A stretch of 64,000 bases of DNA from an uncultured Clostridia bacterium. GTDB taxonomy: Bacteria > Bacillota > Clostridia > Monoglobales > Monoglobaceae. The stretch is taken from positions 7,263 to 71,262 of the forward strand of contig CANRNL010000006.1 in NCBI GenBank assembly GCA_947631965.1, read 5' to 3'. The position numbers and the translations under genes are program-made. This document shows, piece by piece, positions 708-39,525 of the stretch. How positions within the stretch are numbered: the first letter of the stretch is position 1; the number at the start of each line of letters is the position of its first letter. A model generated the notes under the pieces. It had not been told where the DNA came from. It ran no database searches and saw nothing but the letters and a program-made list of their open reading frames with translations.

Positions 708-736
708 TTGACATATTTGGGTGATGGGGTTAGAAT
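708..736 (+). promoter_or_regulatory. sigma-A type promoter for pyrG (TTGACA - 17 bp - TAGAAT)
   Basis: TTGACA at 708..713 and TAGAAT at 731..736 with exact 17-bp spacing, sitting at the end of a roughly 200-bp very AT-rich divergent intergenic region. Confidence 0.6.
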
Positions 737-787
737 ATACTATATAATGTCATTTATTAGCAGATTTGGTTAAGGGGGGGGATTTAA

Positions 788-2398
<1,611 letters not shown>

Positions 2399-2449
2399 CT
2401 TTCTCAGATTGTAGATTTGTTACAAAATTGTTAAATCTGGAAAATAATA

Positions 2450-2479
2450 TTGACAATTCCGACCGTTTAGTGATATAAT
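2450..2479 (+). promoter_or_regulatory. strong extended -10 promoter (TTGACA - 18 bp - TGaTATAAT) with a roughly 150-nt 5' UTR ahead of the SLH gene
   Basis: TTGACA at 2450..2455, TG at 2471..2472, TATAAT at 2474..2479. The leader contains a GAGAGGAGAG...CTCTCCGAGA hairpin, and RBS AAGGAGG precedes the ATG at 2636. Confidence 0.65.
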
Positions 2480-2635
2480 CTGAATAAGTTTAGTGGCGTA
2501 TTGTGCGCAATCGCGCTTCTAAACGAGTTGCGGCGCTTGATATTGCTGAGAGGAGAGCGGTGATTTCAAGTGAAAAACATCTCTCCGAGAAAATTTGAAA
2601 AAAAATTAAAATTATTTATAAGGAGGAATTGAGAC

Positions 2636-15027: not shown

Positions 15028-15744
15028 ATGCGGATTGCGATTTGCGATGATGATTTGAGAGAACAGGAACAAATTGAAGGCGCTTTGCGCGGCTGGGACC
15101 CGACGCGGAGCGCGGAAAAATTTTCAAGCGGGGCAGAGCTGCTGGATGCGGCGAAGAATCCGCCTTCGTTTGATATTGTGTTTCTGGATATATATATGCC
15201 CGACGAGAACGGTATTGCAGTTGCCAAGGAGCTTCGTGAAATCTCTCCCGAAACCGGAATCGTATTTGTCACCACCAGTCGGGAACACGCGGTGGAGGCA
15301 TTTTCGCTCTATGCTCTTCACTATTTGGTCAAGCCGGTCACCACAAAGGGAGTTGTCGAGTCGTTTCGGCGGCTTACCGAGTTTCGCTCCCGACACAGAG
15401 AGAGCATCACGCTCACGGTTGGCTCGGAGCGATATACGGTGTTTTTAGACCAGATTTGCTTTCTTGAGAGCGATAACCACACCGTGAACGTCTCGCTTTC
15501 GGACGGGCGCGTGCTGAAGGTGCGTATGTCCTTCAAGGAACTGGAGAACCAAATGGATGAAAATTTTTTGAGGATTAACCGAGGAATAGTCGTCAATATG
15601 GAATACATTGTGCGAATAGGAACCGACGTTTGCGTTTTGCGGAACGGAATACGGCTGCCAATAGCGATACGGCACAGCACCGCCGTCCGCGCGAAATATG
15701 ACGACTATGTGTTCGATAGGCTTTCGGAACGAAAGGATTTTTAG
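15028..15744 (+). CDS. LytTR-family response regulator (AgrA-like)
   Basis: Receiver domain (MRIAICDDD...DIVFLDIYMPDENG...LVKP) followed by a C-terminal LytTR DNA-binding domain (ICFLESDNHTVNV...FLRINRGIVVNMEYI). Confidence 0.93.
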   Translation: MRIAICDDDLREQEQIEGALRGWDPTRSAEKFSSGAELLDAAKNPPSFDIVFLDIYMPDENGIAVAKELREISPETGIVFVTTSREHAVEAFSLYALHYLVKPVTTKGVVESFRRLTEFRSRHRESITLTVGSERYTVFLDQICFLESDNHTVNVSLSDGRVLKVRMSFKELENQMDENFLRINRGIVVNMEYIVRIGTDVCVLRNGIRLPIAIRHSTAVRAKYDDYVFDRLSERKDF

Positions 15745-15755: not shown

Positions 15756-17144
15756 ATGGCGACGGATTTTTTGCGGAATATGCTTGGATTTTTCATACAA
15801 TTTTTTCCCTGTGCGATTATGATTTTCCTGACATTCCCAAAGGATACATACCGTTTTCGGCGCAGGTGGATTTTTTGCGGCATAACGCTTGCAACCCTGT
15901 TATTTGCGGCGTTGTTCTCCGCGGTGACAAACAGCGGCTTCGGCGGGAACGCGGCGTTTGCCGCCAACATCCTTATGTTTACCGCGATATTTCTCACGCT
16001 GGCGGCATATATGTTCCTTATCAGGCAGTCCCTGATGAAAAAACTGCTGGTCTTTTTCGTCATAATGTTTTATGCGGCGCTGCAGTATTGTCTGGTAAAC
16101 CTGCTGAACGGCGTTATTTCGGTGTTCTTTGGTTTTTCTCCGGAGAACGGGGCTCATTCGGTGTATTCCCTGCACGGTCTGGCGCTTTACGTTGTTACGG
16201 CTGCGGTTATGCTGCCGCCTGTGCTGACGTTTGTGCTTCACACTCTGAGGGAGTATATACGGGAAGTGGAGACGCAGGATATGCGTCGGGAGTTTTCTGT
16301 CCTGATAGTTTCGACAATCGCTTTGATTGCGATTATGATATGCGTTGACTTTACATATTATTATTTGGACTATAAGCTCTATTTGCTGGTTCTGACTCTT
16401 TTCTGGGTCTTGCTTATGTATCAGATGCTGATTTGCTGGCTGATTTTTCGGGAGTCCGTGCGGCGAAAGCGGGATGTTGAGCGCAGGCGGACGCTGGAAA
16501 TTCAGCAGCTTCAATACGAAAAGATTGTCGGCGATATGGAAAATACCAGGCGAATGCGTCACGATTTGCGGCACCATTACAACGCGCTGAACGATATGCT
16601 CGACAGGGGGCAGACAGACGAGATGAAGGCGTATCTTTCCGACGTTATAGATACGACAATCAAGCGGGACAGCGAGGCGTACTGCAAGAATATGACGGTC
16701 AACGGGCTGCTGCAATACTATGTCGGACTTGCACGCGACGAAAATATACAATGCGACGTGCGGGCGGAGTGCGGAGAGCTTGCCATTGACGCGGCGGATT
16801 TGACGGTTCTGTTCGGCAACGCGATGGAAAACGCGATAAACGCCTGTTTGAAATGTTCGGGTGAGCGATGGATAAGCATACAGGTCGGCACTGTTTCGGA
16901 CTCGCTGGCAATCGAAATATCCAATTCCTGCAAAGAGGCGCATATCAACCGCCGTTTTCAATCGGAGGACGGTTTCTTATCCGCGGAGGCGTTTTTGAGC
17001 GACCGCTCAGACGGCGGGCACGGACTGAGGAGCATAGCGCATACCGCGCAAAAATACGACGGAAGCGCAAAGTTCAGATTCAACGCAGAAAAGGAAATTT
17101 TTACAACGCGCATAAGGCTGAATATGCGGTCGGAGCAATCGTGA
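15756..17144 (+). CDS. AgrC/HPK10-like membrane sensor histidine kinase (GHKL ATPase)
   Basis: Six to seven N-terminal TM segments; H-box RMRHDLRHHYN; N-box FGNAMENAINA; G-box DGGHGLRSI. Starts 11 nt after the regulator gene. Confidence 0.9.
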   Translation: MATDFLRNMLGFFIQFFPCAIMIFLTFPKDTYRFRRRWIFCGITLATLLFAALFSAVTNSGFGGNAAFAANILMFTAIFLTLAAYMFLIRQSLMKKLLVFFVIMFYAALQYCLVNLLNGVISVFFGFSPENGAHSVYSLHGLALYVVTAAVMLPPVLTFVLHTLREYIREVETQDMRREFSVLIVSTIALIAIMICVDFTYYYLDYKLYLLVLTLFWVLLMYQMLICWLIFRESVRRKRDVERRRTLEIQQLQYEKIVGDMENTRRMRHDLRHHYNALNDMLDRGQTDEMKAYLSDVIDTTIKRDSEAYCKNMTVNGLLQYYVGLARDENIQCDVRAECGELAIDAADLTVLFGNAMENAINACLKCSGERWISIQVGTVSDSLAIEISNSCKEAHINRRFQSEDGFLSAEAFLSDRSDGGHGLRSIAHTAQKYDGSAKFRFNAEKEIFTTRIRLNMRSEQS

Positions 17145-17912: not shown

Positions 17913-17968
17913 AGTCGGACGGTTCGACAATTATTTATATATTTTATATTTTTAAGGAGGATCAAATA

Positions 17969-20296
17969 ATGAAAAAAAAGATTGTTTCATTGATTTTGAC
18001 AGCCGCGTTGGCGCTTGGAGTAATGCCGTTGGCGGTCTTTGCGGAGGATGATTATGCGACGCGCGGTGAGGTATGCGATATGCTTCTCGCGGCGGCGGAC
18101 GATTACAATTCAGGGGTTGAAAAGACGGATATATTAAAAGGCTACGAGGACGGTCAGCTTCACGAGGAACAGAGCGTAACACGCGCCGAGGCGCTGGTTA
18201 TGCTAAAGCGCGCGTTTGGCGAAATCCCCGAGATAAAAGGCTCGAACAAGTATATTGCGTTTCCAGCAGAAACGTTCACCGACATTCCCGACTGGGCTAA
18301 GACCGAGCTTTCGGATGTGTTCGACGCGGGAATAGTTGCGGGAAAGTCCGAGGGAATATTTGCGCCCGACGACAACGTGACGACCGACGAGATGAAGCTG
18401 TTTATTGAGCGTATGTACCGCGTATTCGGGACAAACCTCAAGGATAACTACTATCAGACGGTCAACAGCGACCCGCTCAACAACACGGTTATGCCCGAAG
18501 GACAGTCGTCTACCGGAACCATCAGAAACGACACGGTTGATATTCAGATAAGAGATTTGGTTAAGGAAATCGCGTCGTCAAATCCCGATAAGAACTCAAA
18601 GTCGGGCAAGATTAAGACGCTTTACGACAACTATATGAACAAAGAGGCGAGAAACGAGCAGGGCTACGAGCCGCTCAAGCCGTATCTCGATGAAATAGAC
18701 GCGGCAAAGAGCGTTGCGGACTTGGTTGACACATACGCCATAAATTCGATTATGGGCTTTACGGTCACTAACGATTATATAGACTCGAACAGCTATATAA
18801 ATATGTTCTACACGCCGTCCATATTGACAAAGGATATGTACGAGGGCAAAGCCGAGAGTCAAAAAGCGGCGATGCTTGATTATATATCCGACGTCTTTGT
18901 GCTTATAGGATACAGCGAAGCGGACGCCGAAGCGGCTGCCGATACGGTGTTTGAGTTTAACTCGGAGATAGCCGAGGCGAGCCTTTCGGCAATCGACGCC
19001 AGAGATATAAGCAAGATCTATAACATATACACGCTTGACGAGATATGTTCCGAGTTTAAAAACATTGATATTGAAAAAGTGTTTGAAAACAGCGGACTTA
19101 AGACAAAGGACAAATTCCTTGTGATAGACGTCAGCTCAATGAAAAAGCTGGCGGAGCTCCTTGATGACAAGAACCTTGAAACTATAAAGACTTTTCTCAA
19201 GTATAACCTGCTTGGCACATACGGCGAATATCTGAGCGATGATTTTACAGACGCCGAGAATAAATACGGGTCCGCCGTAGAGGGAACTCAGGGAACAATT
19301 GCCGATGATATTCAGGCGGCAGGCGTGGTAAACGATATGCTTCCGTCATATGTGGGCGAGAGGTATGCCGAAAAATATGTGGACGACGAGACTAAAGCAA
19401 AGATAACCGAAATGATAAAGGGACTCATAGAGATTTACCGAGAGAGAATAAAAAATCTTGACTGGATGAGCGAGACTACCAAGGAAAAGGCAATAAAGAA
19501 GCTTGACACAATGAGAGTAAATGTCGGCGCACCCGAAAAATACGACGAGATAACTCTCGACGGCAAGGAGCTTAAAAGCTATGCCGACGGCGGAAGTCTT
19601 CTCGAAAATATAATCACGATACAAGAGGCAGATTCGGAGGACAATGCAGCCCTTGAGGGTACTAAGGTCGACAAAACAAAGTGGTCTTCGCCTCCTCAGA
19701 CGGTAAATGCGACTTATAATTCGTTATACAACAGCGTAACGGTATATGCGGGATTTTTGGCGATGCCGGGCGTTTACAGCAAAGATGCGTCTTACGAGTC
19801 AACTATGGGCAGCATAGGCGTGGTTATCGGTCACGAAATCAGCCACGCGTTCGATAAGAGCGGTTCTCAGTTTGACGAGAACGGAAACGCGGTTAACTGG
19901 TGGACAGACGAGGACGCTAAGGCGTTTGACGAGCGTTGTCAGGCTGTCATAGACTTCTACGACGGACAGGAAGCGGCGCCGGGCATCACCACCAACGGCG
20001 AACTGACGCTCACCGAAAACACCGCCGACCTGGGCGGCTTGTCGGTTGTGACAGAGCTTGCTTCAAAGACCGAGAACTTTGACTATGACGAAATGTTCAG
20101 AAGCTGGGCAAATGTTTGGATGAGCCTGATCTATCGTGAAAGGTTGCAGCGTCAGGTTATGAGCGACAGTCACAGCCCCGACAGCGTGCGCGTGAACAGA
20201 CTGTTTGAGACCTGCGACAAATTCTTCGAGACCTACGGTATCACCGAGGGCGACGGAATGTGGGTAGCTCCCGAGGATAGAGTTTCGATTTGGTAA
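17969..20296 (+). CDS. secreted M13 (neprilysin/PepO-type) zinc metallopeptidase with N-terminal SLH-like repeats, copy 1
   Basis: Signal peptide. SLH-like GYEDGQLHEEQSVTRAEALVML and FTDIPDWAKTEL..GIVAGKSEGIFAPDDNVTTDEM. Zinc motif VIGHEISHAFD, third ligand in TENTADLGG, family-typical C-terminal W. Confidence 0.92.
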   Translation: MKKKIVSLILTAALALGVMPLAVFAEDDYATRGEVCDMLLAAADDYNSGVEKTDILKGYEDGQLHEEQSVTRAEALVMLKRAFGEIPEIKGSNKYIAFPAETFTDIPDWAKTELSDVFDAGIVAGKSEGIFAPDDNVTTDEMKLFIERMYRVFGTNLKDNYYQTVNSDPLNNTVMPEGQSSTGTIRNDTVDIQIRDLVKEIASSNPDKNSKSGKIKTLYDNYMNKEARNEQGYEPLKPYLDEIDAAKSVADLVDTYAINSIMGFTVTNDYIDSNSYINMFYTPSILTKDMYEGKAESQKAAMLDYISDVFVLIGYSEADAEAAADTVFEFNSEIAEASLSAIDARDISKIYNIYTLDEICSEFKNIDIEKVFENSGLKTKDKFLVIDVSSMKKLAELLDDKNLETIKTFLKYNLLGTYGEYLSDDFTDAENKYGSAVEGTQGTIADDIQAAGVVNDMLPSYVGERYAEKYVDDETKAKITEMIKGLIEIYRERIKNLDWMSETTKEKAIKKLDTMRVNVGAPEKYDEITLDGKELKSYADGGSLLENIITIQEADSEDNAALEGTKVDKTKWSSPPQTVNATYNSLYNSVTVYAGFLAMPGVYSKDASYESTMGSIGVVIGHEISHAFDKSGSQFDENGNAVNWWTDEDAKAFDERCQAVIDFYDGQEAAPGITTNGELTLTENTADLGGLSVVTELASKTENFDYDEMFRSWANVWMSLIYRERLQRQVMSDSHSPDSVRVNRLFETCDKFFETYGITEGDGMWVAPEDRVSIW

Positions 20297-20349
20297 TTTC
20301 TGTTTCGCAGACGCGAAAACGTGAAAATTTAAAATAAGGAGTTTTAAAA

Positions 20350-22677
20350 ATGAGGAGAAGAATTACGGCGGCGGTGCTGACTTTGGCTATGCTCATTTTG
20401 ACAGTGCCGGCGGCGGTCTTTGCGGAGGAGGATTATGCGACGCGCGGCGAGGTTTGCGATATGCTTCTTATTGCCGCGGACGACTACAATGCAGGGGTTG
20501 AAAAGACGGATATATTACAGGGCTATGAGGACGGTCAGCTTCACGAGGATTGGGGCGTGACAAGAGCCGAAGCGCTGGTTATGCTCAGGCGTGCGTTTGG
20601 CGAAATCCCCGAAATTAAAGGCTCGAATAAATATATTGCGTTTCCCGCCGAGACGTTCACCGATATTCCCGAGTGGGCTAAGACCGAGCTTGCGGACGTG
20701 TTTGACGCGGGAATAGTCGCGGGCAAGTCAGAGGGCATATTCGCGCCCGACGACAACGTGACGACCGACGAGATGAAGCTGTTTATACAGCGTATGTACC
20801 GCGTGTTTGGCACAAACCTCAAGGATGACTATTATCAGACAATTAATCACGACGCGCTTGACAGCGCCGTTATCCCCGAGGGAAAAAGCGTCACAGGCAC
20901 CACACATGGCGATCGGGTCAGCGGGCAGCTTAAAGCTGTTGTAAAAGAAGCGGCATCTTCAAATCCCGACAAGAACTCAAAGGCGGGCAAAATCAAGACG
21001 ATTTACGACAACTATATGAACAAAGAGGCGAGAAACGCACAAGGCTATGAGCCGATAAAGCCGTACCTCGACGAGATAGACGCGGTAAAGAGCGTCTCGG
21101 ACTTTGTAGGCACCGAAGCGATAGATGCTTTCGCGAGATTCCAAATTACGATTGATCAAAAGGACTCGACCAAATATATAGATATTTTTGTCACCCCGTC
21201 GATAAACACAAAGGATATGTACGAGGGAAAGAACGAAAACGCAAAAGAGGCGTATCTCAAATATGTCACAAAGCTGTTTTCCCTTATAGGTTACAGCGAG
21301 GCTGACGCCAAAGCTGCGGCGGACACCGTGTTTGATTTGGAGACTCAAATAGCCGAGGCAAGCCTTTCGCTCCCCGATACCTATGATATAAACAAAACAT
21401 ACAACATATACACGCTTGATGAAATATGCGCGAAGTTTAAAAACATTGATATTGAAAAGGTGTTTGAAAACAGCGGCTTTAAGCTCAAAGACAGATTTAT
21501 GGTTTTCGATGCGGGCGCGATGGAAAAGACGGCGGAGCTGCTTGACGACAAGAATATCGACGCCTTAAAGATTTACGCCAAATTCGCGCTGCTTAGCAAT
21601 AGCGTTCAATATCTGAGCGAGGATTTTGAAAACGCGGAGGATGAATACAACTCCGCGGTTATGGGCATTCAGGGAACCCTCGATGATGAGACGAAGGCGG
21701 TAAGCTGCATAGACAGCCTTGTTCCGGACTATCTTGGCGAGCTGTACAGCGACAAATATGTTGATGAGAAAACCAAGACCGACTTGACCGAAATGATAAA
21801 AGGTATGATCGAGATTTACCGCGAGAGGCTTGAAAACAACGATTGGATGGGCGAGGCGACAAAGCAAAAGGCGATAAAAAAGCTTGACACCATGGGTATA
21901 AAGGTCGGCTGCCCCGACGAGTACGCCGAGGTCTCCCTTGACTCCAAGGACATAAGGAGCTATGACGAGGGCGGAAGCCTCATTGAAAATATGATGACGA
22001 TAGGCGAGGCGAAGGAAGAAGACATGATAGCCAAAGAAGGCACTGTGGTAGACCGCAGTCAGTGGGCAGCGACTCCGCAGACGGTAAATGCTTTCTATGA
22101 CCCTTCGTTTAATGATGTGACAATTTGCGCGGGATTTTTGCAGGTGCCCGGAGTATACGGTACCGACGCCCCTTATGAGAGCAACCTGGGCGCCATAGGC
22201 ATGGTCGTCGGTCACGAGATCAGCCACGCGTTTGACAACAACGGCGCGCAGTATGACGAGAACGGAAACGCGGTGAATTGGTGGACTGATGAGGACGCGG
22301 CGGCGTTTGACAAGCTGTGTCAAAACGTTATAGATTTCTATGACGGCTACGAGGCGGCGCCGGGAATTGCTATGAACGGAGAACTGACTCTTACCGAAAA
22401 CACCGCCGATATGGGCGGCTTGTCGGTTGTGGTCGAGCTTGCGTCAAAGACCGAAAATTTTGACTATAAGCAAATGTTTGAAAGCTATGCCAACCTTCAG
22501 TTTAGCGCGGCGTATCGCGGTTATTTACAAATGTGTGCGACGGGCGACGTCCACAGCCTTCCGAGCGTCCGCGTGAACAGACTGTTTGAGACCTGCGACA
22601 AATTCTTCGAGACCTACGGCATCACCGAGGGCGACGGTATGTGGGTAGCTCCTGAGGACAGAGTTTCGATTTGGTAA
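20350..22677 (+). CDS. secreted M13 zinc metallopeptidase with N-terminal SLH-like repeats, copy 2
   Basis: Same architecture as copy 1: VVGHEISHAFD, TENTADMGG. The start lies exactly 2381 bp after the copy 1 start. Confidence 0.92.
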   Translation: MRRRITAAVLTLAMLILTVPAAVFAEEDYATRGEVCDMLLIAADDYNAGVEKTDILQGYEDGQLHEDWGVTRAEALVMLRRAFGEIPEIKGSNKYIAFPAETFTDIPEWAKTELADVFDAGIVAGKSEGIFAPDDNVTTDEMKLFIQRMYRVFGTNLKDDYYQTINHDALDSAVIPEGKSVTGTTHGDRVSGQLKAVVKEAASSNPDKNSKAGKIKTIYDNYMNKEARNAQGYEPIKPYLDEIDAVKSVSDFVGTEAIDAFARFQITIDQKDSTKYIDIFVTPSINTKDMYEGKNENAKEAYLKYVTKLFSLIGYSEADAKAAADTVFDLETQIAEASLSLPDTYDINKTYNIYTLDEICAKFKNIDIEKVFENSGFKLKDRFMVFDAGAMEKTAELLDDKNIDALKIYAKFALLSNSVQYLSEDFENAEDEYNSAVMGIQGTLDDETKAVSCIDSLVPDYLGELYSDKYVDEKTKTDLTEMIKGMIEIYRERLENNDWMGEATKQKAIKKLDTMGIKVGCPDEYAEVSLDSKDIRSYDEGGSLIENMMTIGEAKEEDMIAKEGTVVDRSQWAATPQTVNAFYDPSFNDVTICAGFLQVPGVYGTDAPYESNLGAIGMVVGHEISHAFDNNGAQYDENGNAVNWWTDEDAAAFDKLCQNVIDFYDGYEAAPGIAMNGELTLTENTADMGGLSVVVELASKTENFDYKQMFESYANLQFSAAYRGYLQMCATGDVHSLPSVRVNRLFETCDKFFETYGITEGDGMWVAPEDRVSIW

Positions 22678-22730
22678 TGCCCGTTTTGCGGACGAGAAAA
22701 TGTGAAGATTTAAAATAGGAGGTTTTAAAA

Positions 22731-25061
22731 ATGAGAAGAAGAATTACGGCGGCGGCTCTGGCTTTGGCTATGCTTATTTTAACAGTGCCGGCGGCGGTCT
22801 TTGCGGAGGATGATTATGCGACGCGCGGCGAGGTGTGCAATATGCTTCTCGCCTCGGCGGACGACTACAATGCAGGGGTTGAAAAGACGGATATATTACA
22901 GGGCTACGAGGACGGTCAGCTCCACGAGGACTGGGGCGTAACAAGAGCCGAAGCGCTGGTTATGCTCAGGCGCGCGTTCGGCGAGATACCCGAGATAAAA
23001 GGTGCAAACAAATACATAGCCTTTCCCGCCGAGACGTTCACCGACATACCCGACTGGGCTAAGACCGAGCTTTCGGACGTGTTTGACGCGGGAATAGTCG
23101 CGGGAAAGTCAGAGGGAATATTCGCGCCCGACGACAACGTGACCAAAGACGAGATGGAGCTTTTTATACAGCGTATGTACCGCGTGTTCGGCACAAATCT
23201 CAAGGACAACTATTATCAGACCGTTAACCTCGACGTGCTTAACAGCGCCGTTATCCCCGACGGAGAACTCAGCATGGGCACCCTGTCCGGCCTTGAGGTG
23301 CAGGATCAGATCAAGGACATCGTAAAGAACGTGGCCGCGTCAGATCCCGACAAAAACTCAAAAGAGGGAAAGATCAAGACGCTCTACGACAACTACATGA
23401 ACAAAGAGGCGAGAAACGCCCAGGGCTATGAGCCGATAAAGCCGTTTCTTGACGAGATAGACGCTATGAAAAGCGTTTCGGATCTTGTAAACTGCAAGGA
23501 GGCGATGGATATTTTCGCGAGATTTGAGGTCGGATATGATGACAAGGACTCAACTCATTACGCCGATTATTTCTCGACTCCGACGATAAACTCAAAGGAA
23601 ATGTATGAGGGAAAGGACGAAAATCGAAAAGCGGCTTCTCTGAAATACAAGGCGTCTCTCTTAAAACTGATCGGCTACAGCGAGGCCGACGCCGAAGCCG
23701 CGGCCGACAGAGCGTTTGATATAGAGAAACAGATCGCCGAGGCGAGCCTTTCGCTTACCGATACCGATGATATAAACAAAACATACAACATATACTCGCT
23801 TGATGAGATATCCGCTCTGTTTAAAAACATTGATATAAACAAGGTGTTTGAAAACAGCGGCCTTAAGAATAAGGACAGATTTATTGTTTCCGACGTCGGC
23901 GCGATGAAAAAAACAGCCGAGCTGCTTGATGATAAGAACCTTGAAGCGATCAAGGACAGCGCGAAGATCAATATTCTCTCAAGCTACAGCATATATCTGA
24001 GTGATGACTTTCATAATGCGTATAAGACGTTTACTTCCGAGGTTTACGGAATTCAGGGAGAGAGCGACGACGAGACCGACGCGATTGACTGCATTGACGG
24101 TCATCTTTCGGATTATCTCGGCGAGCTGTATACCGATAAGTATATGGACGAGAAAACAAAGACCGACGTTACCGAGATTATCAAAGACATGATAGACATC
24201 TACCGCGAGAGAATACAAAAGCTTGACTGGTTGAGTGACGCGACGAAGCAGAAGGCGATAAAGAAGCTCGACACCATGGGAATAAAGGTCGGCGGCCCCG
24301 ATAAGATCCCCGAAACGACCTTAGACAGCACAGAGCTTAAAAGCTACGCCGACGGCGGCAGCCTCGTTGAAAACATTATAGCGATCAATGACGCCGCCGA
24401 GAAAGACGAACTTAAGAACGAGGGCGGAGAGGTCGACCACAACGAGTGGGTAATGTCGCCCCAGACCGTGAACGCCTGCTACAATCCCAGCTTTAACGAT
24501 ATTACCATCACCGCCGCGATATTGCAGATACCGCACACTTACAGCTCAAGCGCCTCATATGAGGAAAATCTGGGTGGAATAGGAATCGTTATCGGCCACG
24601 AGCTCAGCCACGCGTTTGACAAATACGGCTCTCAGTTCGACGAGAACGGAAACGCGGTGAACTGGTGGACCGACGAAGACGCCGCGGCGTTTGATGAGCG
24701 CTGCAAAGCGGTTATCGACTTCTATGACGGACAGGAGAGCGCGCCCGGCATCACCACAAACGGAGAGCTGACTCTTACCGAAAACACCGCCGACATGGGC
24801 GGCCTGTCGGTGGCGACGGAGCTGGCGTCAAGAAACGAGAATTTTGATTACAAAAAGATGTTCGAGACATGGGCGCAGCTCTGGTTGGATGTTTCCTACC
24901 GTCAGTATCTTGAACAGCTAAGCATGATTGACGTGCACAGCGCGGCCGAGGTTCGCGTGAACAGACTGTTTGAGACCAGCGACAAGTTCTTCGAGACCTA
25001 CGGAATCACCGAAGACGACGGAATGTGGGTAGCTCCCGAGGACAGAGTTTCGATTTGGTAA
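22731..25061 (+). CDS. secreted M13 zinc metallopeptidase with N-terminal SLH-like repeats, copy 3
   Basis: Same architecture as copies 1 and 2: VIGHELSHAFD, TENTADMGG. The start lies exactly 2381 bp after the copy 2 start. Confidence 0.92.
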   Translation: MRRRITAAALALAMLILTVPAAVFAEDDYATRGEVCNMLLASADDYNAGVEKTDILQGYEDGQLHEDWGVTRAEALVMLRRAFGEIPEIKGANKYIAFPAETFTDIPDWAKTELSDVFDAGIVAGKSEGIFAPDDNVTKDEMELFIQRMYRVFGTNLKDNYYQTVNLDVLNSAVIPDGELSMGTLSGLEVQDQIKDIVKNVAASDPDKNSKEGKIKTLYDNYMNKEARNAQGYEPIKPFLDEIDAMKSVSDLVNCKEAMDIFARFEVGYDDKDSTHYADYFSTPTINSKEMYEGKDENRKAASLKYKASLLKLIGYSEADAEAAADRAFDIEKQIAEASLSLTDTDDINKTYNIYSLDEISALFKNIDINKVFENSGLKNKDRFIVSDVGAMKKTAELLDDKNLEAIKDSAKINILSSYSIYLSDDFHNAYKTFTSEVYGIQGESDDETDAIDCIDGHLSDYLGELYTDKYMDEKTKTDVTEIIKDMIDIYRERIQKLDWLSDATKQKAIKKLDTMGIKVGGPDKIPETTLDSTELKSYADGGSLVENIIAINDAAEKDELKNEGGEVDHNEWVMSPQTVNACYNPSFNDITITAAILQIPHTYSSSASYEENLGGIGIVIGHELSHAFDKYGSQFDENGNAVNWWTDEDAAAFDERCKAVIDFYDGQESAPGITTNGELTLTENTADMGGLSVATELASRNENFDYKKMFETWAQLWLDVSYRQYLEQLSMIDVHSAAEVRVNRLFETSDKFFETYGITEDDGMWVAPEDRVSIW

Positions 25062-25081: not shown

Positions 25082-25128
25082 AAAAGAGGCTGCCGCCTGA
25101 AGTGTTCAGGCGGCAGCCCTTATTTTTT
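25082..25128. terminator. bidirectional terminator between convergent genes
   Basis: 14-bp stem GGCTGCCGCCTGAA-gtg-TTCAGGCGGCAGCC followed by CTTATTTTTT, with an A-rich left flank. Confidence 0.85.
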
Positions 25129-25145: not shown

Positions 25146-28100
25146 TTATTCATTCGGGTATTCGGGAAAAACGCAAGGACTGCACAGCGGGGTCATATCT
25201 CCGTGCTTCCACACGAACAGCTCCGCCTTCTCGGCGTGCGCCGCGTCGGTAAAGCCGAACGTAAACTGCTCCTGCGCGCCGCTTTTTATAAATTTGTTTT
25301 GAGACTGTGCGTCGATTAGTTTGCCGTCCGCGTCGTAGAGCGCCATTATAACGTCCGCGTCCGCATCCTCCGCCGTATTTGTTACGCTCGCGATAAACGC
25401 GACGCTGCCTCCGTTTATAATACTGTCGGTGATTTCAGCGGTCACCGCGCCGATAGTGAAGGTGTAGTCGTTATAAGCGTAATCGTAAACCGAGAAGCTG
25501 AGAGTGCTCTCGTCCATATCCGTTATATCAAGCGTTATTTCGGCTTGTTGCTCCGCTTTGACGGGTGCGCTGACCATTCCTGCCGCGTCGACCGCAACCG
25601 CGCCCATAAGATAGCGGTTGTCGCTCGCCTCGAACGCCGCATATTTCTTACCGTTCTCCTCATAAATTCTCGGATTGCTTATTTTCGGCTGCTCGGAGTC
25701 GATATAAAACTTATATGTCTTTTCCTCCGACCTGCTCCTTTCTCCGTAGACGAATTTACCCGACACGGTAGCGGTATAGTCGCCGTCGGGAGCAGTCAGC
25801 CCGCCCAAGGAAATTGATTCAAAATAATCATTGTTTTCAAGCTGGCGGCACAGACCGTCGCCCCTATTTTTTTCATACACAACCTCGCCGTCCGCGTCTT
25901 TGACGGTCAAAGTCACATCGGTAAGACTGCGCAGCATACGCAGATATATTCCGCAGTCGTCGGTGTTAAAGACGGATATTCCGACATAGCTTTCGCTTTC
26001 GTATTCGCCGCTGTCTGCAAATTCGTTTGTTCCGAGCACAAGGCTGTTATATGCCAGATAGCCGTTTGCAAGGCTTCCTCCTTCCTCAAAATACGAGGGA
26101 GAGAACGCGTCAAACGCCGTCCAGTCGCCGTAAAAGCCGGTGTAGGGCATACTCGCTTTTGTCACCGAGCCGTCTTTGGAGCTTAAGGTTATATAGCCGT
26201 CCACCCAAAAGCCGTTCGTGAAAATTTGCTTATTCGCCGCGGTCTGAGCGCTGTTTAAAGTAATTTTTATCTCTATATCCCGCGTGTCTTTGGCGGGAAT
26301 GGTCACTTCCTCGGGCTTGTCGACGGCGGTAATTTCAAGCGGCACCGAGTCCGAAATGAGATTTTCGCCGTTTACGTTTTCATAGCCGTCGGTGAGCGCG
26401 CAAACCGATATGTCGTCGTAGGTCACGGGACTGTCCGTCAGGTTTTCAGCCGTGAATTTAAGCGTTATCTCGTCGCCGAGCATATCGCCGAGGCTGAGCT
26501 TCGACTTGCCGCTGTCCCCCTTTAAGATTACGGGAATTGTCAGCGCGTCTTGCAAATTCGCAAGTCCCGCGCCCTGCTTGCGCGGCGACAAGGGAAGGGA
26601 CTTTTCGTCGTCGGAGAACATAATGCTCGCCGAGCTCATCATAATATTTTCCATAAGCGCGACCTTGTCCGCCCCCGAGACGTCGGGATATTTCGCGTCG
26701 ACAAATCCGCTTATCAGCGCCATTGCGCCGGTTATATGCGGAGCCGCCATGGACGTGCCGTTGTTGTTTTCGTACATGTCGCCGTTCACCGACGACAGAA
26801 TATTTCCGCCCGGCGCGGTGATTTCGGGCTTTAGCTCAAGATTTGAACCGATCGCCCAGTTGCTGAAATAGGATATGCCCGCGTCGGGAAATTCCTTGTA
26901 GAGCGTGCATATTTCCGCGTCGGTCTTAAAGCGCTTGTCCTCGGCGTTTATCAGCTTTTCGCCGTAGGACTTGCGCACCACCAGACCGGGTATTTCATCG
27001 CTCACGGTATGCAGTCTGCCGTCAATCTCGTCGTTTTCCACAAATATCATTCCAATGGCGCCGCAATCTAAAAGATACCTGCTTGTTATTCCGCTGTTTA
27101 AAACAGAGATAACGATTTTTCCTTTTACGACATCCTCGGGCGGGGTTGTCTCACTGCCCACATACACATAGTCGTAAAATTTATCCGAGAATTTTTTGAA
27201 AAACAGCTCGCTGTACACCTCTTGGTCAACGACGATTTTCTCTCCGTCGGCGAGTGTTATTCCGCCGCCGACGAGCCACCTCTTATCCGTGTCGCACGAC
27301 GCGACCGAGGTCGACGCCGAACAGATCGCTGGATAGTCGACGTAGCTGTAATCGGGATTTTCGGCGGTCTCGGGGTATCTGTCGTCATTTCCGGCGGCGC
27401 TGACGACCGCTATACCTGCATTTCTCAGGTTATCGCAGGCGGTTGTGTACGCCGGGGAATTTGCCATTGTGGAGCCTAAGCTCAGATTGACTGCGCACAC
27501 ATCCATTTTCGCCGCATCGTCCATCGCGGCGATGATAATGGAGTTATATGTGCTGCCTTCCGAGTCGGCAATTTTCATCAAGATAAGCTGAGCCTCGGGC
27601 GCGACGCCGGAGAATGTAGTCCCTTCAAACACGCCGTTTTTGCCCGCCGCGATGCCCGCCACATGAGTGCCGTGCGACAGCTGAGGGTAATACACATCCG
27701 CGTTATTGTCTCCGTAATCATAGGCGAACGGGATTTTCGCGTTTTTATAAACCTGATTTGCCTCAGCCTTCGCGTTAAGCTCGTTGTTTTCGATAAGGTC
27801 TTTTACATAGCTTTTAGATAGTCTCGGGCTTTCAATCGGCGATGAGAAAAATTCGTGAACGACATCAAATCCCGCGTCTATGATTGCCACGGCTTGCCCG
27901 CGTCCGTCAAAGCCGTTATCATACATAGCCTGAACGTTCATCATCTGTGCGCTGAGGCTCGGCTCGCCGTCCTCGCCCGAGATTGGCGTGGGAATGCTTG
28001 CGGCTTGGGATATATACACGTTTTTGACGCCGTCTATCGACTTGATTTTCTCAATATCGCTCTCGCGGGCTTCCATCGAAAAGCCGTTTAAAACGCTCGT

Positions 28101-28385
28101 GTAGGTAAAGCCCTTGTCGGCGTTCGCACCAGTGCGTCTTTTGATGTCGGACTTGACCTCCGCCTGAGCGCTCAAAAGCTTCGCCTCGGTGTTCTTCGCC
28201 TCGGCGGTTTTCATAAACTCCGACGCGCCTATGCGGACGGCGTTTTTCGTTGCCAAAAGCGGAGCGCCCTCGGTTTCGACTATAAGCGTTACCTTTTCGT
28301 CTTCGCCCGCCGCGAACGTCGGAACGTATGCCGCGCCTAAGATTAGCGCCGCCGACAGAAGTGCCGAAATAATTTTTTTGAACAT
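25146..28385 (-). CDS. subtilisin-family (S8) cell-envelope-proteinase-like serine protease
   Basis: Signal peptide and inhibitor_I9-like propeptide. Catalytic D (AIIDAGFD), H (SHGTHVAGI) and S (NNGTSMAAPHITG). A PA-domain-like insert and a long C-terminal beta-rich region, as in lactocepin / C5a-peptidase types. The start is moved to ATG 28385 after GAGGGTG. Confidence 0.9.
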   Translation of the reverse strand: MFKKIISALLSAALILGAAYVPTFAAGEDEKVTLIVETEGAPLLATKNAVRIGASEFMKTAEAKNTEAKLLSAQAEVKSDIKRRTGANADKGFTYTSVLNGFSMEARESDIEKIKSIDGVKNVYISQAASIPTPISGEDGEPSLSAQMMNVQAMYDNGFDGRGQAVAIIDAGFDVVHEFFSSPIESPRLSKSYVKDLIENNELNAKAEANQVYKNAKIPFAYDYGDNNADVYYPQLSHGTHVAGIAAGKNGVFEGTTFSGVAPEAQLILMKIADSEGSTYNSIIIAAMDDAAKMDVCAVNLSLGSTMANSPAYTTACDNLRNAGIAVVSAAGNDDRYPETAENPDYSYVDYPAICSASTSVASCDTDKRWLVGGGITLADGEKIVVDQEVYSELFFKKFSDKFYDYVYVGSETTPPEDVVKGKIVISVLNSGITSRYLLDCGAIGMIFVENDEIDGRLHTVSDEIPGLVVRKSYGEKLINAEDKRFKTDAEICTLYKEFPDAGISYFSNWAIGSNLELKPEITAPGGNILSSVNGDMYENNNGTSMAAPHITGAMALISGFVDAKYPDVSGADKVALMENIMMSSASIMFSDDEKSLPLSPRKQGAGLANLQDALTIPVILKGDSGKSKLSLGDMLGDEITLKFTAENLTDSPVTYDDISVCALTDGYENVNGENLISDSVPLEITAVDKPEEVTIPAKDTRDIEIKITLNSAQTAANKQIFTNGFWVDGYITLSSKDGSVTKASMPYTGFYGDWTAFDAFSPSYFEEGGSLANGYLAYNSLVLGTNEFADSGEYESESYVGISVFNTDDCGIYLRMLRSLTDVTLTVKDADGEVVYEKNRGDGLCRQLENNDYFESISLGGLTAPDGDYTATVSGKFVYGERSRSEEKTYKFYIDSEQPKISNPRIYEENGKKYAAFEASDNRYLMGAVAVDAAGMVSAPVKAEQQAEITLDITDMDESTLSFSVYDYAYNDYTFTIGAVTAEITDSIINGGSVAFIASVTNTAEDADADVIMALYDADGKLIDAQSQNKFIKSGAQEQFTFGFTDAAHAEKAELFVWKHGDMTPLCSPCVFPEYPNE

Positions 28386-28441
28386 AGCAATCACCCTCTT
28401 GATTACATTTTTAAGATAGTTTCAGAATGTTTTTATGCCGA

Positions 28442-29887
28442 TTACTTTATCAGCTCTTTTCTTTTGGCAATACCGCAGCGGACTATGACCGCGCCGTAGG
28501 CGGCGGTAAGTACGCCGGCAATAGTATAGCTTGCCGCCCACGGCAGGTTAAAGCCGATAGCCGCGTTTAAAATAAAGCTCGAAATTATGAACATATAGAA
28601 CATACCCGGCACAAGAGCCATTATAAACGGCTGTTTGTGGCGCATCATATAAACCGTAATCATTGCGAACGCGAACACGGCTATGGTCTGGTTCGCCCAC
28701 GCGAAGTAGCGCCAGAGTATATTAAATCCGCCCGTGTTCAGCTTGGCGAACACCAAAATTACCGCAACGACCGCGAATATTATGATTGAGATTCCGAGAC
28801 GGTTGGTCTTTTTGGATTGGTCTATTTTTGCCGCCTCGGCAACTATGAGCCTGAGGGAGCGCAGAGCCGTGTCGCCCGATGTTATCGGAAGCACTATAAT
28901 TCCTATGATCGCGATAATTCCGCCGACGCTGCCGAGAAGGTTATTTGAGACAATGCCCACTATGCTCGTGGCTTCGGTATGCGCGTCGGCAAGTCCGAGC
29001 TTCATAACGCCCATTGCGGCGGCAGCCCAAATCATTGCGATAAAGCCCTCCGCAATCATCATATTGTAAAACGTCGTACGACCCTCTTTTTCACTGCTTA
29101 TGGTTCGGGAAATCAGCGTTGACTGCGTGGAGTGAAAGCCCGAAACTATTCCGCAGGCGACGGTTACAAAAAATATCGGTATAAAGTGAAGTCCTTCGGG
29201 GTGAATACCGGTAACTCCTGTCGTCCATATATTGTCAAGGGGATAGCCCTTTACGAACAAGCCGATAAACACGCCTATCGCCGACAGGATGAGCAAGCCG
29301 CCGAAGAACGGGTAAACCTTGCCGATAATTTTGTCGATTGGGAACAGCGTGGCGATTATATAATATACGAAAATCGCGCCGTACACTATCCAAACGATTG
29401 GATTTGCGGCTCCGTTGTCGACTCTTAAAATCTGAGTGATGAACAAGTCGCCGGGCGTATATATAAACACCGTGCCGACGAGCAGCATCGTAAGGCATAC
29501 AAATATATTATAAATCGGATACGCGTATTTTCCGAGGTATTTGCGTATCAGGCTCGGCATCTGCGCGCCGTCGTTTCGCACCGAAATCATACCGCTCATA
29601 TAGTCGTGAAGCGCGCCGCCTATTACGCAGCCTATGGGTATGGTCAAAAACGCTATAGGTCCGAACAAAATACCCTGTATCGGTCCCAGAATCGGGCCCG
29701 TACCTGCGATATTCAAAAGTTCGATAAGCGAGTTTTTCCACTTTTTCATCGGGACGTAGTCCACGCCGTCATTAAGCCGCACGGCGGGCGTTTCGCGGTC
29801 GTCGGGTCCGAACGCCTTTTCGCACACCTTGCCGTACAGAGCGCCGCCCACGGCGAGAATAACCAGTCCGATAATAAATGTAATCAT
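28442..29887 (-). CDS. cstA: carbon starvation protein A family transporter (peptide/pyruvate uptake)
   Basis: 481-aa polytopic protein. N-terminus GALYGKVCEKAFGPDDRETPA...DGVDYVPMKKWKN and overall pattern typical of CstA. Confidence 0.88.
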   Translation of the reverse strand: MITFIIGLVILAVGGALYGKVCEKAFGPDDRETPAVRLNDGVDYVPMKKWKNSLIELLNIAGTGPILGPIQGILFGPIAFLTIPIGCVIGGALHDYMSGMISVRNDGAQMPSLIRKYLGKYAYPIYNIFVCLTMLLVGTVFIYTPGDLFITQILRVDNGAANPIVWIVYGAIFVYYIIATLFPIDKIIGKVYPFFGGLLILSAIGVFIGLFVKGYPLDNIWTTGVTGIHPEGLHFIPIFFVTVACGIVSGFHSTQSTLISRTISSEKEGRTTFYNMMIAEGFIAMIWAAAAMGVMKLGLADAHTEATSIVGIVSNNLLGSVGGIIAIIGIIVLPITSGDTALRSLRLIVAEAAKIDQSKKTNRLGISIIIFAVVAVILVFAKLNTGGFNILWRYFAWANQTIAVFAFAMITVYMMRHKQPFIMALVPGMFYMFIISSFILNAAIGFNLPWAASYTIAGVLTAAYGAVIVRCGIAKRKELIK

Positions 29888-33027: not shown

Positions 33028-33531
33028 TTACTCCGTAACCTCTCGCACGTCGCTGACAGTGCCGGAGGTGCTGGCAAGCTTGCTCGTGAAGTTGTAATGT
33101 GAACCCGGGGCAATCTGCTTATTTTGCTTGGTGTAGAATCCGTCCGCCGAAATTTTGCCGTTTACGCGCACCGTTACCGTGACGTCGTATCTGTCGGGCA
33201 CTTCGGCGTTTCGATAAGAGCCGTCCGCCATAATGTGAGCGTCGTATGCGGGTCTTTCCGTAACCGAAACAATCTCGCCCATTTCCTCCTTGGTAGAAAG
33301 GTCGGTGACGGGTCCGCCCGCTTTTAGCGCCTCAACGGTGCCGATACGAACCGTGTTTACGTCTATGTCGTACTCGAAAACGGATGAGGAAGCGCCTGTG
33401 TCCACGCCTGTGTCGTCGGGCTTAACGAAGCGCATATATACGCCGATAATCAGAACCAATACGGCGACGATTGCCAGAATATCTATAATGCTGACCTTTC
33501 CGAACAGCTTTCCTTGTTTATTTATTATCAT
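33028..33531 (-). CDS. single-pass membrane protein, DUF4330-like (copy 2)
   Basis: N-terminus MIINKQGKLFGKVSIIDILAIVAVLVLIIGVYMRF followed by a beta-rich ectodomain. Paralog of the upstream gene. Confidence 0.65.
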   Translation of the reverse strand: MIINKQGKLFGKVSIIDILAIVAVLVLIIGVYMRFVKPDDTGVDTGASSSVFEYDIDVNTVRIGTVEALKAGGPVTDLSTKEEMGEIVSVTERPAYDAHIMADGSYRNAEVPDRYDVTVTVRVNGKISADGFYTKQNKQIAPGSHYNFTSKLASTSGTVSDVREVTE

Positions 33532-33543
33532 AGCCTTGTCCTC

Positions 33544-34014
33544 CTATTCCTCGGTGTAAATTTGGGTGACATAACCGGAACCCGCGCATTCGCGTCCTTT
33601 TATGACTGCCGACATACCGACGCGTATCGCCGTGTCGTTTGAGTTGACCGAACTCGCGCTTTCGGTACCCTCCGACATAAGAGTTACGATAATATCGTAT
33701 TTGTCCGGAATTTCCGTTTCGATAAACTTACCGCCCACTCCGTCGAACGAGTTTTGGGTCGCGGGTCTTACTTCGCTTTTTACAATGGTTGCGGGAACTT
33801 TTTCCTTTTCTCCGACAGTCACCTTTTCGCCCACGGCAAATCGGTCGGTCATATATTCCTCGCACTCGGTAATGTCAACATCATAAAAGATTTTAACGCT
33901 TTTGTCTGTAGATGTGACTTCCGAGCGGTTGCTAAGGAACATAAAGCCTGCCGCGCCCACCGCCAGAATCAGCAGTATTATTATCGCGTCGATAACATTA
34001 AATTTAGCCTTCAT
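33544..34014 (-). CDS. single-pass membrane protein, DUF4330-like (copy 1)
   Basis: MKAKFNVIDAIIILLILAVGAAGFMF followed by an ectodomain. Its start overlaps the GT4 stop by 4 nt. Confidence 0.65.
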   Translation of the reverse strand: MKAKFNVIDAIIILLILAVGAAGFMFLSNRSEVTSTDKSVKIFYDVDITECEEYMTDRFAVGEKVTVGEKEKVPATIVKSEVRPATQNSFDGVGGKFIETEIPDKYDIIVTLMSEGTESASSVNSNDTAIRVGMSAVIKGRECAGSGYVTQIYTEE

Positions 34015-35168
34015 ATTGAGTTTCCTCCTTTGCTTTTCCGTACGTTTCCTTGTTTTTCTTCGTAAACGGCGTCATAGACAGCCTGTATATTTTCGGCATA
34101 TTTTTCGGATGTAAATACCGAATTGTAAATTTCACGGCTTTCCGCGCTCATTTTTTTATACAGAGCTTCATCCGAGAGCAGGCGTATTATCGCCTGCGCG
34201 ATTTCGCCCGCGCTGTGAGTGGGAACGAGGAATCCGTTTCGCCCGTTCTTTATAACTCCCGGATTGCCGCCGAAATCGGTGACGACCGCGGGCTTTCCGA
34301 GGCTCATTCCCTCCAGCAGCGAAAGGCTTGTAGCCTCTGTGCCGAAGGAGCAGTTGACCTGTACGTCCATCAGATTCATAAGCGGCGTTACGTCCGAGAC
34401 GAAGCCCGCCATAACGACCGTATCTTCAAGACCAAGCTCTGCTATGTGCCGCCGTATATTTTCCTCTTCGCCGCCGGTACCCGCTATTATGAATTTGACG
34501 GGTATGCCGCTTTCTTTGACAATTTTTGCCGCTTCGACAAAGTATTTATGCCCTTTGACCTCGTTGAGCCGCGCTATGATTGCGGCGACGCGTTCGCCGG
34601 GGCTTACTCCGTACCGATTTTCCGCAAGCAGAAATTCCGCGTCACGCCGCATTTCCTTGAGCGGGTCAACTCCGTTTAACACGACCGTAATTTTTTTCTC
34701 GTCAACTCCGGTGTCGACAAGGTTTTGCTTTGCCGCCTCCGCCACCGCGATTATAGCGTCGGCGGTGTGGTTGTTGACAAAGCCGTTTATCTTTTTGCCT
34801 ATTCCCGACGACAATCTCTTCGAGGGAGGGAAAACGCTGTGCCGCGTATAAACTATTCCCGCGCCGCAAAGCTTTGCGGCGATACGCGCCGACATACTCG
34901 CGTGGGTATGCACTATGTCGGGCTTCAATTCGTCAAAACACTTTTTCAGCTTGCCTATCGAGCCGATACTGAGCGACTTTTCGGCTATGCCGTCTATTTC
35001 AACCACGGGAAAGCCAAGTTCCTCAACGAGCGGTTTTAAAAGACTGTTTGGCGGCAGTACCGTCGTAATGTCAAATTTTTTTCTGTCGCAGCGGCGCAAA
35101 AAGGTGAGAATACATTTCCCCGCGCCGCCTATGTTGGTGTCGCTCGAAACCTCAATGACCTTTATCAA
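34011..35168 (-). CDS. GT4-family (GT-B fold) glycosyltransferase
   Basis: N-terminus GGAGKCILTF and C-terminal EX7E region GTEATSLSLLEGMSLGKPAVVTDFGGNPGVIKNGRNGFLVP. Confidence 0.9.
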   Translation of the reverse strand: MIKVIEVSSDTNIGGAGKCILTFLRRCDRKKFDITTVLPPNSLLKPLVEELGFPVVEIDGIAEKSLSIGSIGKLKKCFDELKPDIVHTHASMSARIAAKLCGAGIVYTRHSVFPPSKRLSSGIGKKINGFVNNHTADAIIAVAEAAKQNLVDTGVDEKKITVVLNGVDPLKEMRRDAEFLLAENRYGVSPGERVAAIIARLNEVKGHKYFVEAAKIVKESGIPVKFIIAGTGGEEENIRRHIAELGLEDTVVMAGFVSDVTPLMNLMDVQVNCSFGTEATSLSLLEGMSLGKPAVVTDFGGNPGVIKNGRNGFLVPTHSAGEIAQAIIRLLSDEALYKKMSAESREIYNSVFTSEKYAENIQAVYDAVYEEKQGNVRKSKGGNSI

Positions 35169-37096: not shown

Positions 37097-37135
37097 AATA
37101 TCTTTACCTCTTTATTTTTTTGCTCTTTGTTTTTG

Positions 37136-39444: not shown

Positions 39445-39525
39445 GATACTGTAATCTACTGTTTTATAAAAAAGGGCAAAAATAAGGGAGTTGAAAACTT
39501 ACGCTTGGTGCGAGGAGGGTTTACT

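Follow-up and report, generated by a model that had tools for sequence, protein, structure and literature searches.

We analyzed a 64,000-nucleotide stretch of DNA from an uncultured Clostridia bacterium of the family Monoglobaceae (assembly GCA_947631965.1, contig CANRNL010000006.1), which we call the window (W in comparisons with other genomes). It carries three adjacent genes, A, B, and C, for M13-type metallopeptidases that begin with a signal peptide and an S-layer homology (SLH) module. We consider it fairly probable that they represent a wall-tethered M13 operon of old core types, in which the N-terminal modules undergo gene conversion and the enzyme cores are exchanged at shared breakpoints.

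The three intact open reading frames (ORFs) encode proteins of 775, 775, and 776 aa. Their start codons are exactly 2381 bp apart, as a first-pass annotation of this DNA had stated; the period is exact because A and B are of equal length and both spacers measure 53 bp. The same annotation described the spacers as related and as carrying a ribosome-binding site (RBS). We found 42 of the 53 positions identical in a position-by-position count, and an AGGAG-type RBS in each spacer.

Conservation among the three copies is mosaic. Nucleotide identity is 88–90% in the N module, 65–71% in the core (aa 166–615), and 89–93% in the C tail. At sites where two copies share the amino acid, the fraction of identical codons was 0.72–0.78 in the N module, 0.59–0.62 in the core, and 0.81–0.85 in the C tail, against 0.43 by chance (ends versus middle, Fisher p = 0.003, 0.0009, and 0.0001). 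Synonymous divergence (dS) between copies was 0.40–0.59 in the N module and 0.26–0.39 in the C tail, and it was saturated in the core (1.2–1.7). The longest exact match between copies was 50 nt. These profiles bear out the alike ends and diverged core that had been noticed by eye, including the excess synonymous identity at the ends. Two of the details need correction. The last 110 nt, described as nearly identical, are 89–93% identical, and the identity of about 90% claimed for the first ~165 aa holds for the N module and not for the signal peptide of A, which shares only 47% identity with its counterparts in B and C.

For each region we built trees and identity matrices from 29 full-length genes of 14 loci plus the three genes of the window. 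The cores (aa 166–737) grouped by paralog type across genomes, and at least five old types (A–E), shared among species, were found in 12 contigs of related MAGs (metagenome-assembled genomes) from the gut. Type A comprises gene A and its counterparts in L002 (the sister genome and closest relative, with the same triple array and the same 2381-bp period) and in L001, which has two copies. Type B includes gene B, a gene of L002, and genes of five MAGs of the Monoglobus clade; type C includes gene C and genes of seven such MAGs; type D consists of the third gene of L002 and the first of L001; and type E occurs in five Monoglobus-clade MAGs. The window thus carries A, B, and C, and L002 carries A, B, and D. 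The composition and order of the arrays vary among genomes (A-B-C, A-B-D, D-A, C-E-x-B).

Core identity is 87–99% within a type and 64–72% between types, with dS of 1.05–1.7 between types within a genome. The A core shares 99% identity with L002_10001 and 95% with L001_10001; the B core is 98% identical to L002_12382 and 87–88% to the Monoglobus B types; and the C core is 93–94% identical to Monoglobus genes. Since the core dS among the three copies is saturated and other species hold orthologues at 88–99% nucleotide identity, the paralog types predate those species.

The N module behaves differently from the core: it groups by genome lineage and not by core type, which indicates that the anchor ends evolve in concert. 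Gene conversion was sought with quartet informative-site counts, region trees, and sliding identity profiles. In the quartet formed by genes C and B of the window and the C and B genes of L006, the N module had 43 by-genome and 4 by-type sites, and the core had 4 versus 310 (Fisher 3e-46). Four further inter-lineage quartets gave the same by-genome pattern in the N module, and the signal persisted when only synonymous columns were counted (12–27 vs. 0–3). In the N module, gene A is 80% identical to the A-type gene of L001, and the paralogs within L001 are 91% identical to each other; in the core the relation is reversed, 95% versus 65%. Along the gene, the L001 paralogs are 92–100% identical over most of aa 1–141 (77–88% across aa 82–121) and 48–83% thereafter. 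Same-genome paralogs are therefore closer than orthologues in the N module, synonymous sites included.

In close relatives (W–L002 and L005–L008), the N modules still mostly track orthology. Together with the differences that remain among the window modules, this points to episodic, short-tract conversion and not to a continuous process. A recent short tract was seen in the first ~70 nt of gene A, which are of the B/C kind in L002 and quite different in the window, and near-identical C-type proteins on other contigs have a signal peptide that is either C-like or B-like. We take these comparisons to show that the signal peptide and SLH module are kept lineage-specific by gene conversion among array members.

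In gene C, the replacement of a core can be followed directly. Positions 9577 to 30270 of the window align collinearly with L002 at about 85–96% identity, except that the stretch ~23080–24880 falls to 67–77%. Gene C matches its positional counterpart in L002 with 85–100% identity up to aa ~150. Between aa ~152 and ~765, its identity to C-type genes of the Monoglobus clade is 93–100% in most 20-codon windows (78–90% in a few), against only 47–80% to the resident copies; after aa ~765 the resident type returns. The C core and the D-type core of L002 at the same position have 66% identity and a dS of 2.6, and the N modules of the two genes are orthologous (about 90%). Because the core types differ at a syntenic position where the N modules are orthologous, a replacement event is required, and part of the mosaic reflects core replacement, not end conversion alone. 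We take the comparison of the two loci to show in situ replacement of the C core.

The same two breakpoints were found between the A-type gene of L001 and its D-type neighbor. On the 5′ side, the breakpoint lies where the SLH module ends and Peptidase_M13_N begins (aa 158), and breakpoints recur at the SLH/M13 domain boundary (about aa 142–160) and within the last ~20 codons.

Synonymous divergence between genomes was estimated as NG86 dS, with one to seven flanking genes per genome pair as background. Between the window and Monoglobus sp., dS was 1.4–2.3 in the flanks (response regulator, histidine kinase, and the CstA transporter gene), 0.84–1.07 in the N module, 0.11–0.18 in the C core, and 0.39–0.43 in the B core. 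Against L001 the values were 1.67 for CstA, 1.50 for the N module of A, and 0.154 for the A core; against L002 they were 0.19–0.61 for seven flanking genes, 0.17–0.36 for the N module, 0.036 for the A core, and 0.065 for the B core. The cores are thus 3–10 times less diverged than the flanking genes at synonymous sites. Flank dS also exceeded M13 dS in L005–L008, L005–L006, and L002–L001; the trend was weaker in L005–L009, where the ranges nearly meet (flanks 0.29–0.47, M13 0.14–0.21). Codon bias as a cause of the low core dS was rejected: the effective number of codons of the M13 genes (42.6–48.7) and their G+C content at third codon positions are like those of neighboring genes.

Segment dS far below that of the flanks, incongruence, and defined breakpoints, the features expected of exchange between species, were found together, with few flanking genes and with MAG data throughout. 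From dS we infer that cores have been exchanged between species, and repeated homologous exchange is the simplest reading. Homologous recombination via the conserved ends would carry cores from one co-resident species to another or let one core take the place of another in situ. More tentatively, and with rather less confidence than we have in conversion and exchange as such, we suggest that gut Monoglobales share a circulating pool of at least five M13 cassettes that plug into lineage-specific SLH anchors. The boundary segment and the C tail (with the spacers) would serve as recombination arms, and the array would be a reshufflable set of surface specificities whose anchor is matched to the cell's own wall polymer.

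The ratio of nonsynonymous to synonymous divergence (dN/dS) in the cores was 0.15–0.19 for window A and B pairs within type. The C-type core of 22731–25061 gave 0.30–0.44 against L005_7353, L006_947, and L008_3873, which could reflect relaxed or adaptive change after transfer.

All three proteins matched both Pfam domains of the family above gathering score: Peptidase_M13_N (257–273 bits, E 1e-76 to 1e-81) and Peptidase_M13 (142–153 bits, E about 1e-42 to 1e-45), with full-length profile coverage. The catalytic residues are intact in each, namely HEISH or HELSH, ENTAD, VNA(T/F/C)Y, D-x-HS followed by VRVNR, and a C-terminal Trp; H622, E623, H626, E683, N580, and H735 are invariant across 64 homologues. 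The AlphaFold2 (AF2) model of the gene A product, made with 64 homologues (pLDDT 92.4, pTM 0.89), has the two-lobed M13 fold. In Foldseek it matched PgPepO (9fma, 9kn2; TM(target) 0.90, E 5e-42) and also Zmp1 and neprilysin (TM 0.79–0.88), and Lactobacillus PepO superposes too. A PDB sequence search returned the same M13 families (E 2e-81 and weaker). Motif inspection, Pfam, and structure matches agree with the earlier statement that the three products retain an intact catalytic set (HExxH, ENTAD, and the C-terminal W). The signal peptides that it attributed to them were also found; each is of the Sec type, with cleavage between VFA and E, and lacks a lipobox Cys.

The products look like secreted zinc oligopeptidases of the PepO/neprilysin type and would be ordinary members of a common family. 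The closed M13 chamber restricts substrates to oligopeptides. Their predicted function is most likely that of a co-transcribed set of wall-anchored oligopeptidases that differ in subsite residues. The enzymes would trim extracellular oligopeptides at the wall with complementary specificities, and the trimmed peptides would feed uptake, possibly via the conserved neighbor CstA; the array would be controlled, in response to peptides, by the adjacent LytTR two-component system.

The N module is of the SLH type, probably as a compact and degenerate three-repeat unit. Two SLH-like repeats had been claimed for each protein. The region does score as SLH, with a repeat at aa 103–138 (27.5–31.8 bits; Pfam cut-off 20.8), and the second repeat (aa 53–75) covers half of the profile with 14.6 bits, below the cut-off. 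In the AF2 model, the module (aa ~28–155) has block-mean pLDDT of 82–94 and three helices carrying TRGE, TRAE, and TTDE. The N-module profile matched SbsB and Sap SLH regions among PDB sequences (E 6e-12 to 6e-11) and SLH-anchored surface proteins, including P. alvei SpaA (E 6e-12 to 3e-10). By tblastn, aa 3–146 align with the N-terminal SLH regions of two further window proteins.

At least six more SLH ORFs occur in the window (2636–5641, 39505–40875, 42385–45225, 46640–53062, 53028–55991, and 56038–58809). Among the further SLH proteins are one of 2140 aa with Big_2/aBig_2 and a purple-acid-phosphatase N domain, and one that combines SLH with Amidase_3. SLH tethering looks like this organism's general mode of surface display. 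An adjacent pair of DUF4330 genes (33028–33531 and 33544–34014) lies beside a glycosyltransferase gene, a Wzy_C O-antigen-ligase-like gene, and MurJ (34011–38716), and this envelope polysaccharide cluster near 33028–38716 might make the polymer bound by the SLH modules.

Other histories of the array were considered. The first-pass annotation proposed a recent local head-to-tail triplication, followed by functional divergence of the cores, with gene conversion keeping the ends alike. The exact period, the related spacers, and the higher synonymous identity of the ends would fit such a history, but it is very improbable given a core dS of 1.2–1.7 between copies, the much closer orthologue that each core has in another species, the grouping of core trees by type across genomes, and the sister genome, which keeps the period and has another core type at position 3. 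The idea that the cores diversified after a local triplication is thus contradicted by the age of the core types. A history with no recombination at all, in which purifying selection on the anchor, the C-terminal fold, or mRNA features preserves the ends and the cores are less constrained, has a negligible probability in our view. It could call on the family-wide conservation of the N-module and C-tail protein sequences and on the common correlation of dN with dS; it fails on the reversed relation of N module and core between orthologues and same-genome paralogs described above for L001, on the by-genome signal at synonymous-only sites, and on identity that switches sharply over 10–20 codons. 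Hardly more probable is that the mosaics are artefacts of short-read metagenome assembly, with strains or species switched inside conserved segments. The conserved ends are where an assembler could switch, and the sequences are without exception MAG contigs, most of them from a single rabbit-gut study, which also weighs against our own reading. Exact matches between paralogs reach at most 50 nt, however, and the same pattern was found in separately named assemblies from at least seven samples; the architecture of gene C recurs as three non-identical variants on other contigs, and a second contig record is identical across the B–C junction and downstream. The recombinant cores share 93–95% identity with their nearest relatives instead of about 100%, and the data set therefore contains no donor.

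The main competitor, which we regard as unlikely but clearly less so than the foregoing, accepts the concerted evolution of the N module and holds that the cores descended vertically. Low core dS would then reflect a locally low synonymous rate, and high N-module dS would mean that different ancestral paralog modules had become fixed. Lowered dS is seen for all core types in all pairs, as a locus-specific low synonymous rate would also produce, and conversion from diverged paralogs can inflate orthologous N-module distances. Vertical descent is nevertheless hard to reconcile with a codon bias no stronger than that of the neighbors, with C and B core dS that differ 3–4 fold within the same array in the same pair, W–L006 (0.107 vs. 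0.385), with the replacement needed to explain the different core types of the window and L002 at a syntenic position, or with the variable composition and order of the arrays.

Further points also count against conversion, core exchange, and wall tethering. The flanking background amounts to only one to seven genes per pair, and NG86 dS above ~1 is saturated and imprecise. The N-module dS among the window copies (0.40–0.59) exceeds that between the orthologous modules of the window and L002 (0.17–0.36). In the C tail, informative sites are too scarce to tell conversion from constraint; of the ongoing conversion that had been suggested for both ends, the part on the N module stands through its by-genome grouping, synonymous sites included, and the part on the C tail is thin. 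Concerning the anchor, a single SLH repeat per protein exceeds the Pfam cut-off, and the Foldseek matches of the N module to the three-repeat SLH domain of Sap, with which it aligns as a whole, are weak (E 0.03–0.13, TM 0.51–0.59, 150–169 columns; 6bt4 with E 0.03, TM 0.59, and 169 columns, and 3pyw with TM 0.51). No PS_pyruv_trans (csaB) match was found among the window ORFs scanned, and wall anchoring via the N module is predicted from sequence.

The three genes probably form one operon, with a predicted transcript that starts near 17925–17960 and ends at 25088–25118 (Table 1). No terminator was found in either the A–B or the B–C spacer, and a strong one lies between gene C and the convergent S8 gene, so a single A-B-C transcript is likely. 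AT-rich promoter-like hexamers upstream of gene A (17924–17952 and 17943–17970) are consensus matches only. Regulatory RNA in the spacers was considered and rejected, as only weak AT-rich or short hairpins (−4.8 to −10.8 kcal/mol) were present and these were not conserved between spacers. Terminator-like hairpins on the minus strand (20038–20021, 22419–22402, and 24803–24786), which repeat with the 2381-bp period, are the antisense of conserved TAD(L/M)GG coding sequence and not terminators.

Table 1. Coordinates of the M13 array and its neighboring features in the window
Feature	Coordinates	Strand	Description
LytTR response regulator	15028–15744	+	
GHKL (HATPase_c_5) histidine kinase	15756–17144	+	
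Upstream region of gene A	17913–17968	+	Consensus matches only: hairpin after AIM24 (17914–17928), RBS AAGGAGG (17954–17960)
Gene A	17969–20296	+	775 aa; signal peptide, SLH module, and M13 peptidase; A-type core
Signal peptide of A	17969–18043	+	aa 1–25, cleavage between VFA and E; unlike those of B and C
Anchor module of A	18044–18463	+	aa 26–165; one full SLH repeat (aa 103–138), degenerate earlier repeats with TRGE and TRAE helices
Core of A	18464–20179	+	aa 166–737, type A
Motifs of A	19832–19846; 20015–20029	+	HEISH; ENTAD
Conserved C tail of A	20180–20296	+	aa 738–775 plus stop
A–B spacer	20297–20349	+	53 bp, RBS AAGGAG, without terminator, identical in L002
Gene B	20350–22677	+	775 aa, B-type core
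Anchor module of B	20425–20844	+	Evolves in concert with that of A
Motifs of B	22213–22227; 22396–22410	+	HEISH; ENTAD
C tail of B	22561–22677	+	
B–C spacer	22678–22730	+	53 bp, RBS GGAGG
Gene C	22731–25061	+	776 aa, recombinant: signal peptide and SLH module of the resident lineage, C-type core
Anchor module of C	22806–23225	+	Evolves in concert with that of A
Replaced segment of gene C	23180–25030	+	About aa 152–765, from 20-codon identity profile
Motifs of C	24597–24611; 24780–24794	+	HELSH; ENTAD
C tail of C	24945–25061	+	
Intrinsic terminator	25088–25118		Strong, bidirectional; 14–15 bp G+C-rich stem, T runs on both strands
S8 subtilase	25146–28394	−	Fn3-like and I9 domains
CstA-family transporter	28442–29887	−	Convergent to the array

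The residues aligned with the neprilysin (NEP) subsites are fixed within a type across species and differ between types. We take these positions to correspond to NEP F544, M579/V580, and V692/W693; this alignment is a lead, not a test. At the x of NAxY, type A has T, types C and D have C, and type B has F, as do most type E genes (one of them has C). HExxH is preceded by VV, MV, I(A/V), VA, and IV in types A to E, respectively, and the VW pair reads VW, LQ, LW, LW, and VW in the same order. All seven B-type genes examined have Gln in place of the Trp aligned with neprilysin W693, a residue with more than 90% conservation across the family (the pair is aa 716–717 in B). This change at the predicted S1′ position is a candidate specificity switch.

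Fusions of SLH and M13 turned out to be abundant. The protein search gave more than 460 clusters at E ≤ 1e-10 among the scored candidates, and SLH together with both M13 domains was listed in 115 of the best 120 clusters. Their sources are uncultured Clostridia, among them Monoglobus, Ca. Ornithomonoglobus, and Oscillospiraceae, and the most specific names they bear are "M13-type metalloendopeptidase" and "S-layer homology domain-containing protein". With the N module alone as query, clusters (50% identity level) numbered 39 at E ≤ 1e-30 and 741 at ≤ 1e-10. Most of the closest full-length matches were proteins of ~780 aa with the module at the N terminus, and many other close matches were short fragments. 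Three proteins, P0125 (1269 aa), P0138 (644 aa), and P0172 (675 aa), have the M13-type N module at residue ~520–650 and not at the N terminus; these may represent neighboring array genes joined by read-through or by mis-calling, or other architectures.

Arrays were surveyed in species-representative genomes. Besides L001 and L002, five rabbit-gut Monoglobus-like MAGs (L003, titled only "uncultured Clostridia bacterium", L005, L006, L008, and L009) have two or three copies. A distant Clostridia MAG, L020, has three SLH-M13 genes in tandem (2–4570) with ~40% identity and gaps of only ~20–30 bp, which means that such arrays are not confined to the Monoglobus-like clade. The rarity that had been supposed for SLH-anchored M13 arrays is therefore not borne out, since the fusions are abundant and tandem arrays recur in related MAGs. 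Literature searches on SLH in connection with M13 or PepO, on SLH or S-layers in Monoglobus, and on gene conversion of SLH domains yielded no relevant paper, and no characterized member of this abundant subfamily was found in the literature searched.

The array shares the two-domain fold, HExxH, ExxxD, NAxY, and the C-terminal-lobe His/Arg with known M13 peptidases (Lactococcus/Lactobacillus PepO, Mycobacterium tuberculosis Zmp1, PgPepO, TfPepO, and neprilysin). The nearest characterized surface-displayed bacterial enzymes are PgPepO of Porphyromonas gingivalis and TfPepO of Tannerella forsythia, which are surface-displayed lipoproteins (PMC12686026). These two are lipid-anchored and others have a membrane helix, whereas the array products are predicted to be attached by SLH after a signal peptidase I-type signal peptide, and each locus has two or three co-oriented paralogs of distinct types instead of one gene. 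SLH proteins such as Bacillus anthracis Sap/EA1, Geobacillus stearothermophilus SbsB, and P. alvei SpaA are similar in the N-module profile match and in TRAE-type motifs in two of the three pseudo-repeats. The array module differs from them in being only about 130 aa long, in a truncated first repeat and a second one below the Pfam cut-off, and in a degenerate third TRAE (TTDE or TKDE).

The S-layer cassette and cwp paralogs of Clostridioides difficile and the sap homologues of Campylobacter fetus combine a conserved anchoring or 5′ module with variable parts that homologous recombination exchanges within the locus or between strains. In the array, by contrast, what varies is a conserved enzyme core that falls into discrete old types and not an antigenically variable structural domain, and exchange appears to cross species boundaries. 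Every array copy has its own start codon and RBS, so the copies appear to be co-expressed and not expressed in alternation. A likeness also exists to the lactococcal proteolytic system (PrtP of the S8 family, Opp uptake, and intracellular PepO), as an S8 subtilase with Fn3-like domains, M13 oligopeptidases, and a candidate peptide transporter lie close together. In the window, however, the M13 enzymes are predicted to be extracellular, and CstA is found as the transporter instead of Opp; the S8 gene runs convergently, no anchor was detected in its product, and L001 and the Monoglobus loci lack it at the equivalent position.

Both the enzymes and the recombination processes belong to known kinds. 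What appears to be new is the well-supported modular evolution at a domain boundary, together with an abundant SLH-M13 subfamily of discrete types. The locus offers a clean and quantifiable case in which recombination respects a domain boundary: the anchor co-evolves with its genome, and old enzyme bodies are swapped, apparently across species in one gut habitat. Types A–E differ at predicted S1′/S2′ positions (e.g., Trp to Gln in B) and are ready targets for specificity assays. The findings suggest that these fiber-associated gut bacteria also process peptides at their surface.

The array had been described as lying beside an S8 envelope proteinase and CstA. CstA is indeed a conserved array neighbor in L001, L005, and L006, and the LytTR/GHKL pair lies directly 5′ of the M13 arrays in Monoglobus loci too. 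The S8 subtilase and AIM24 stand next to the array only in the window and the L002 lineage. We rejected S8 as a conserved functional partner: it is missing at the equivalent position in L001 and the Monoglobus loci, and the Pfam scan gave no SLH match in it. The two-component pair and CstA adjoin arrays across genomes whose flanks are synonymously saturated (L005 5054–7281 and 18050–19489; also L001, L003, L006, L008, and L009), and their conservation suggests a regulatory or transport link. In L005 (12380–15379), L008 (9526–12594), and L009 (10333–13380), a protein of ~1000 aa, whose only Pfam domains are three SLH repeats at its C terminus, is encoded between the second and third M13 genes; the dS of this gene between genomes of the Monoglobus arrays is about 0.5, intermediate between the M13 genes and the flanks.

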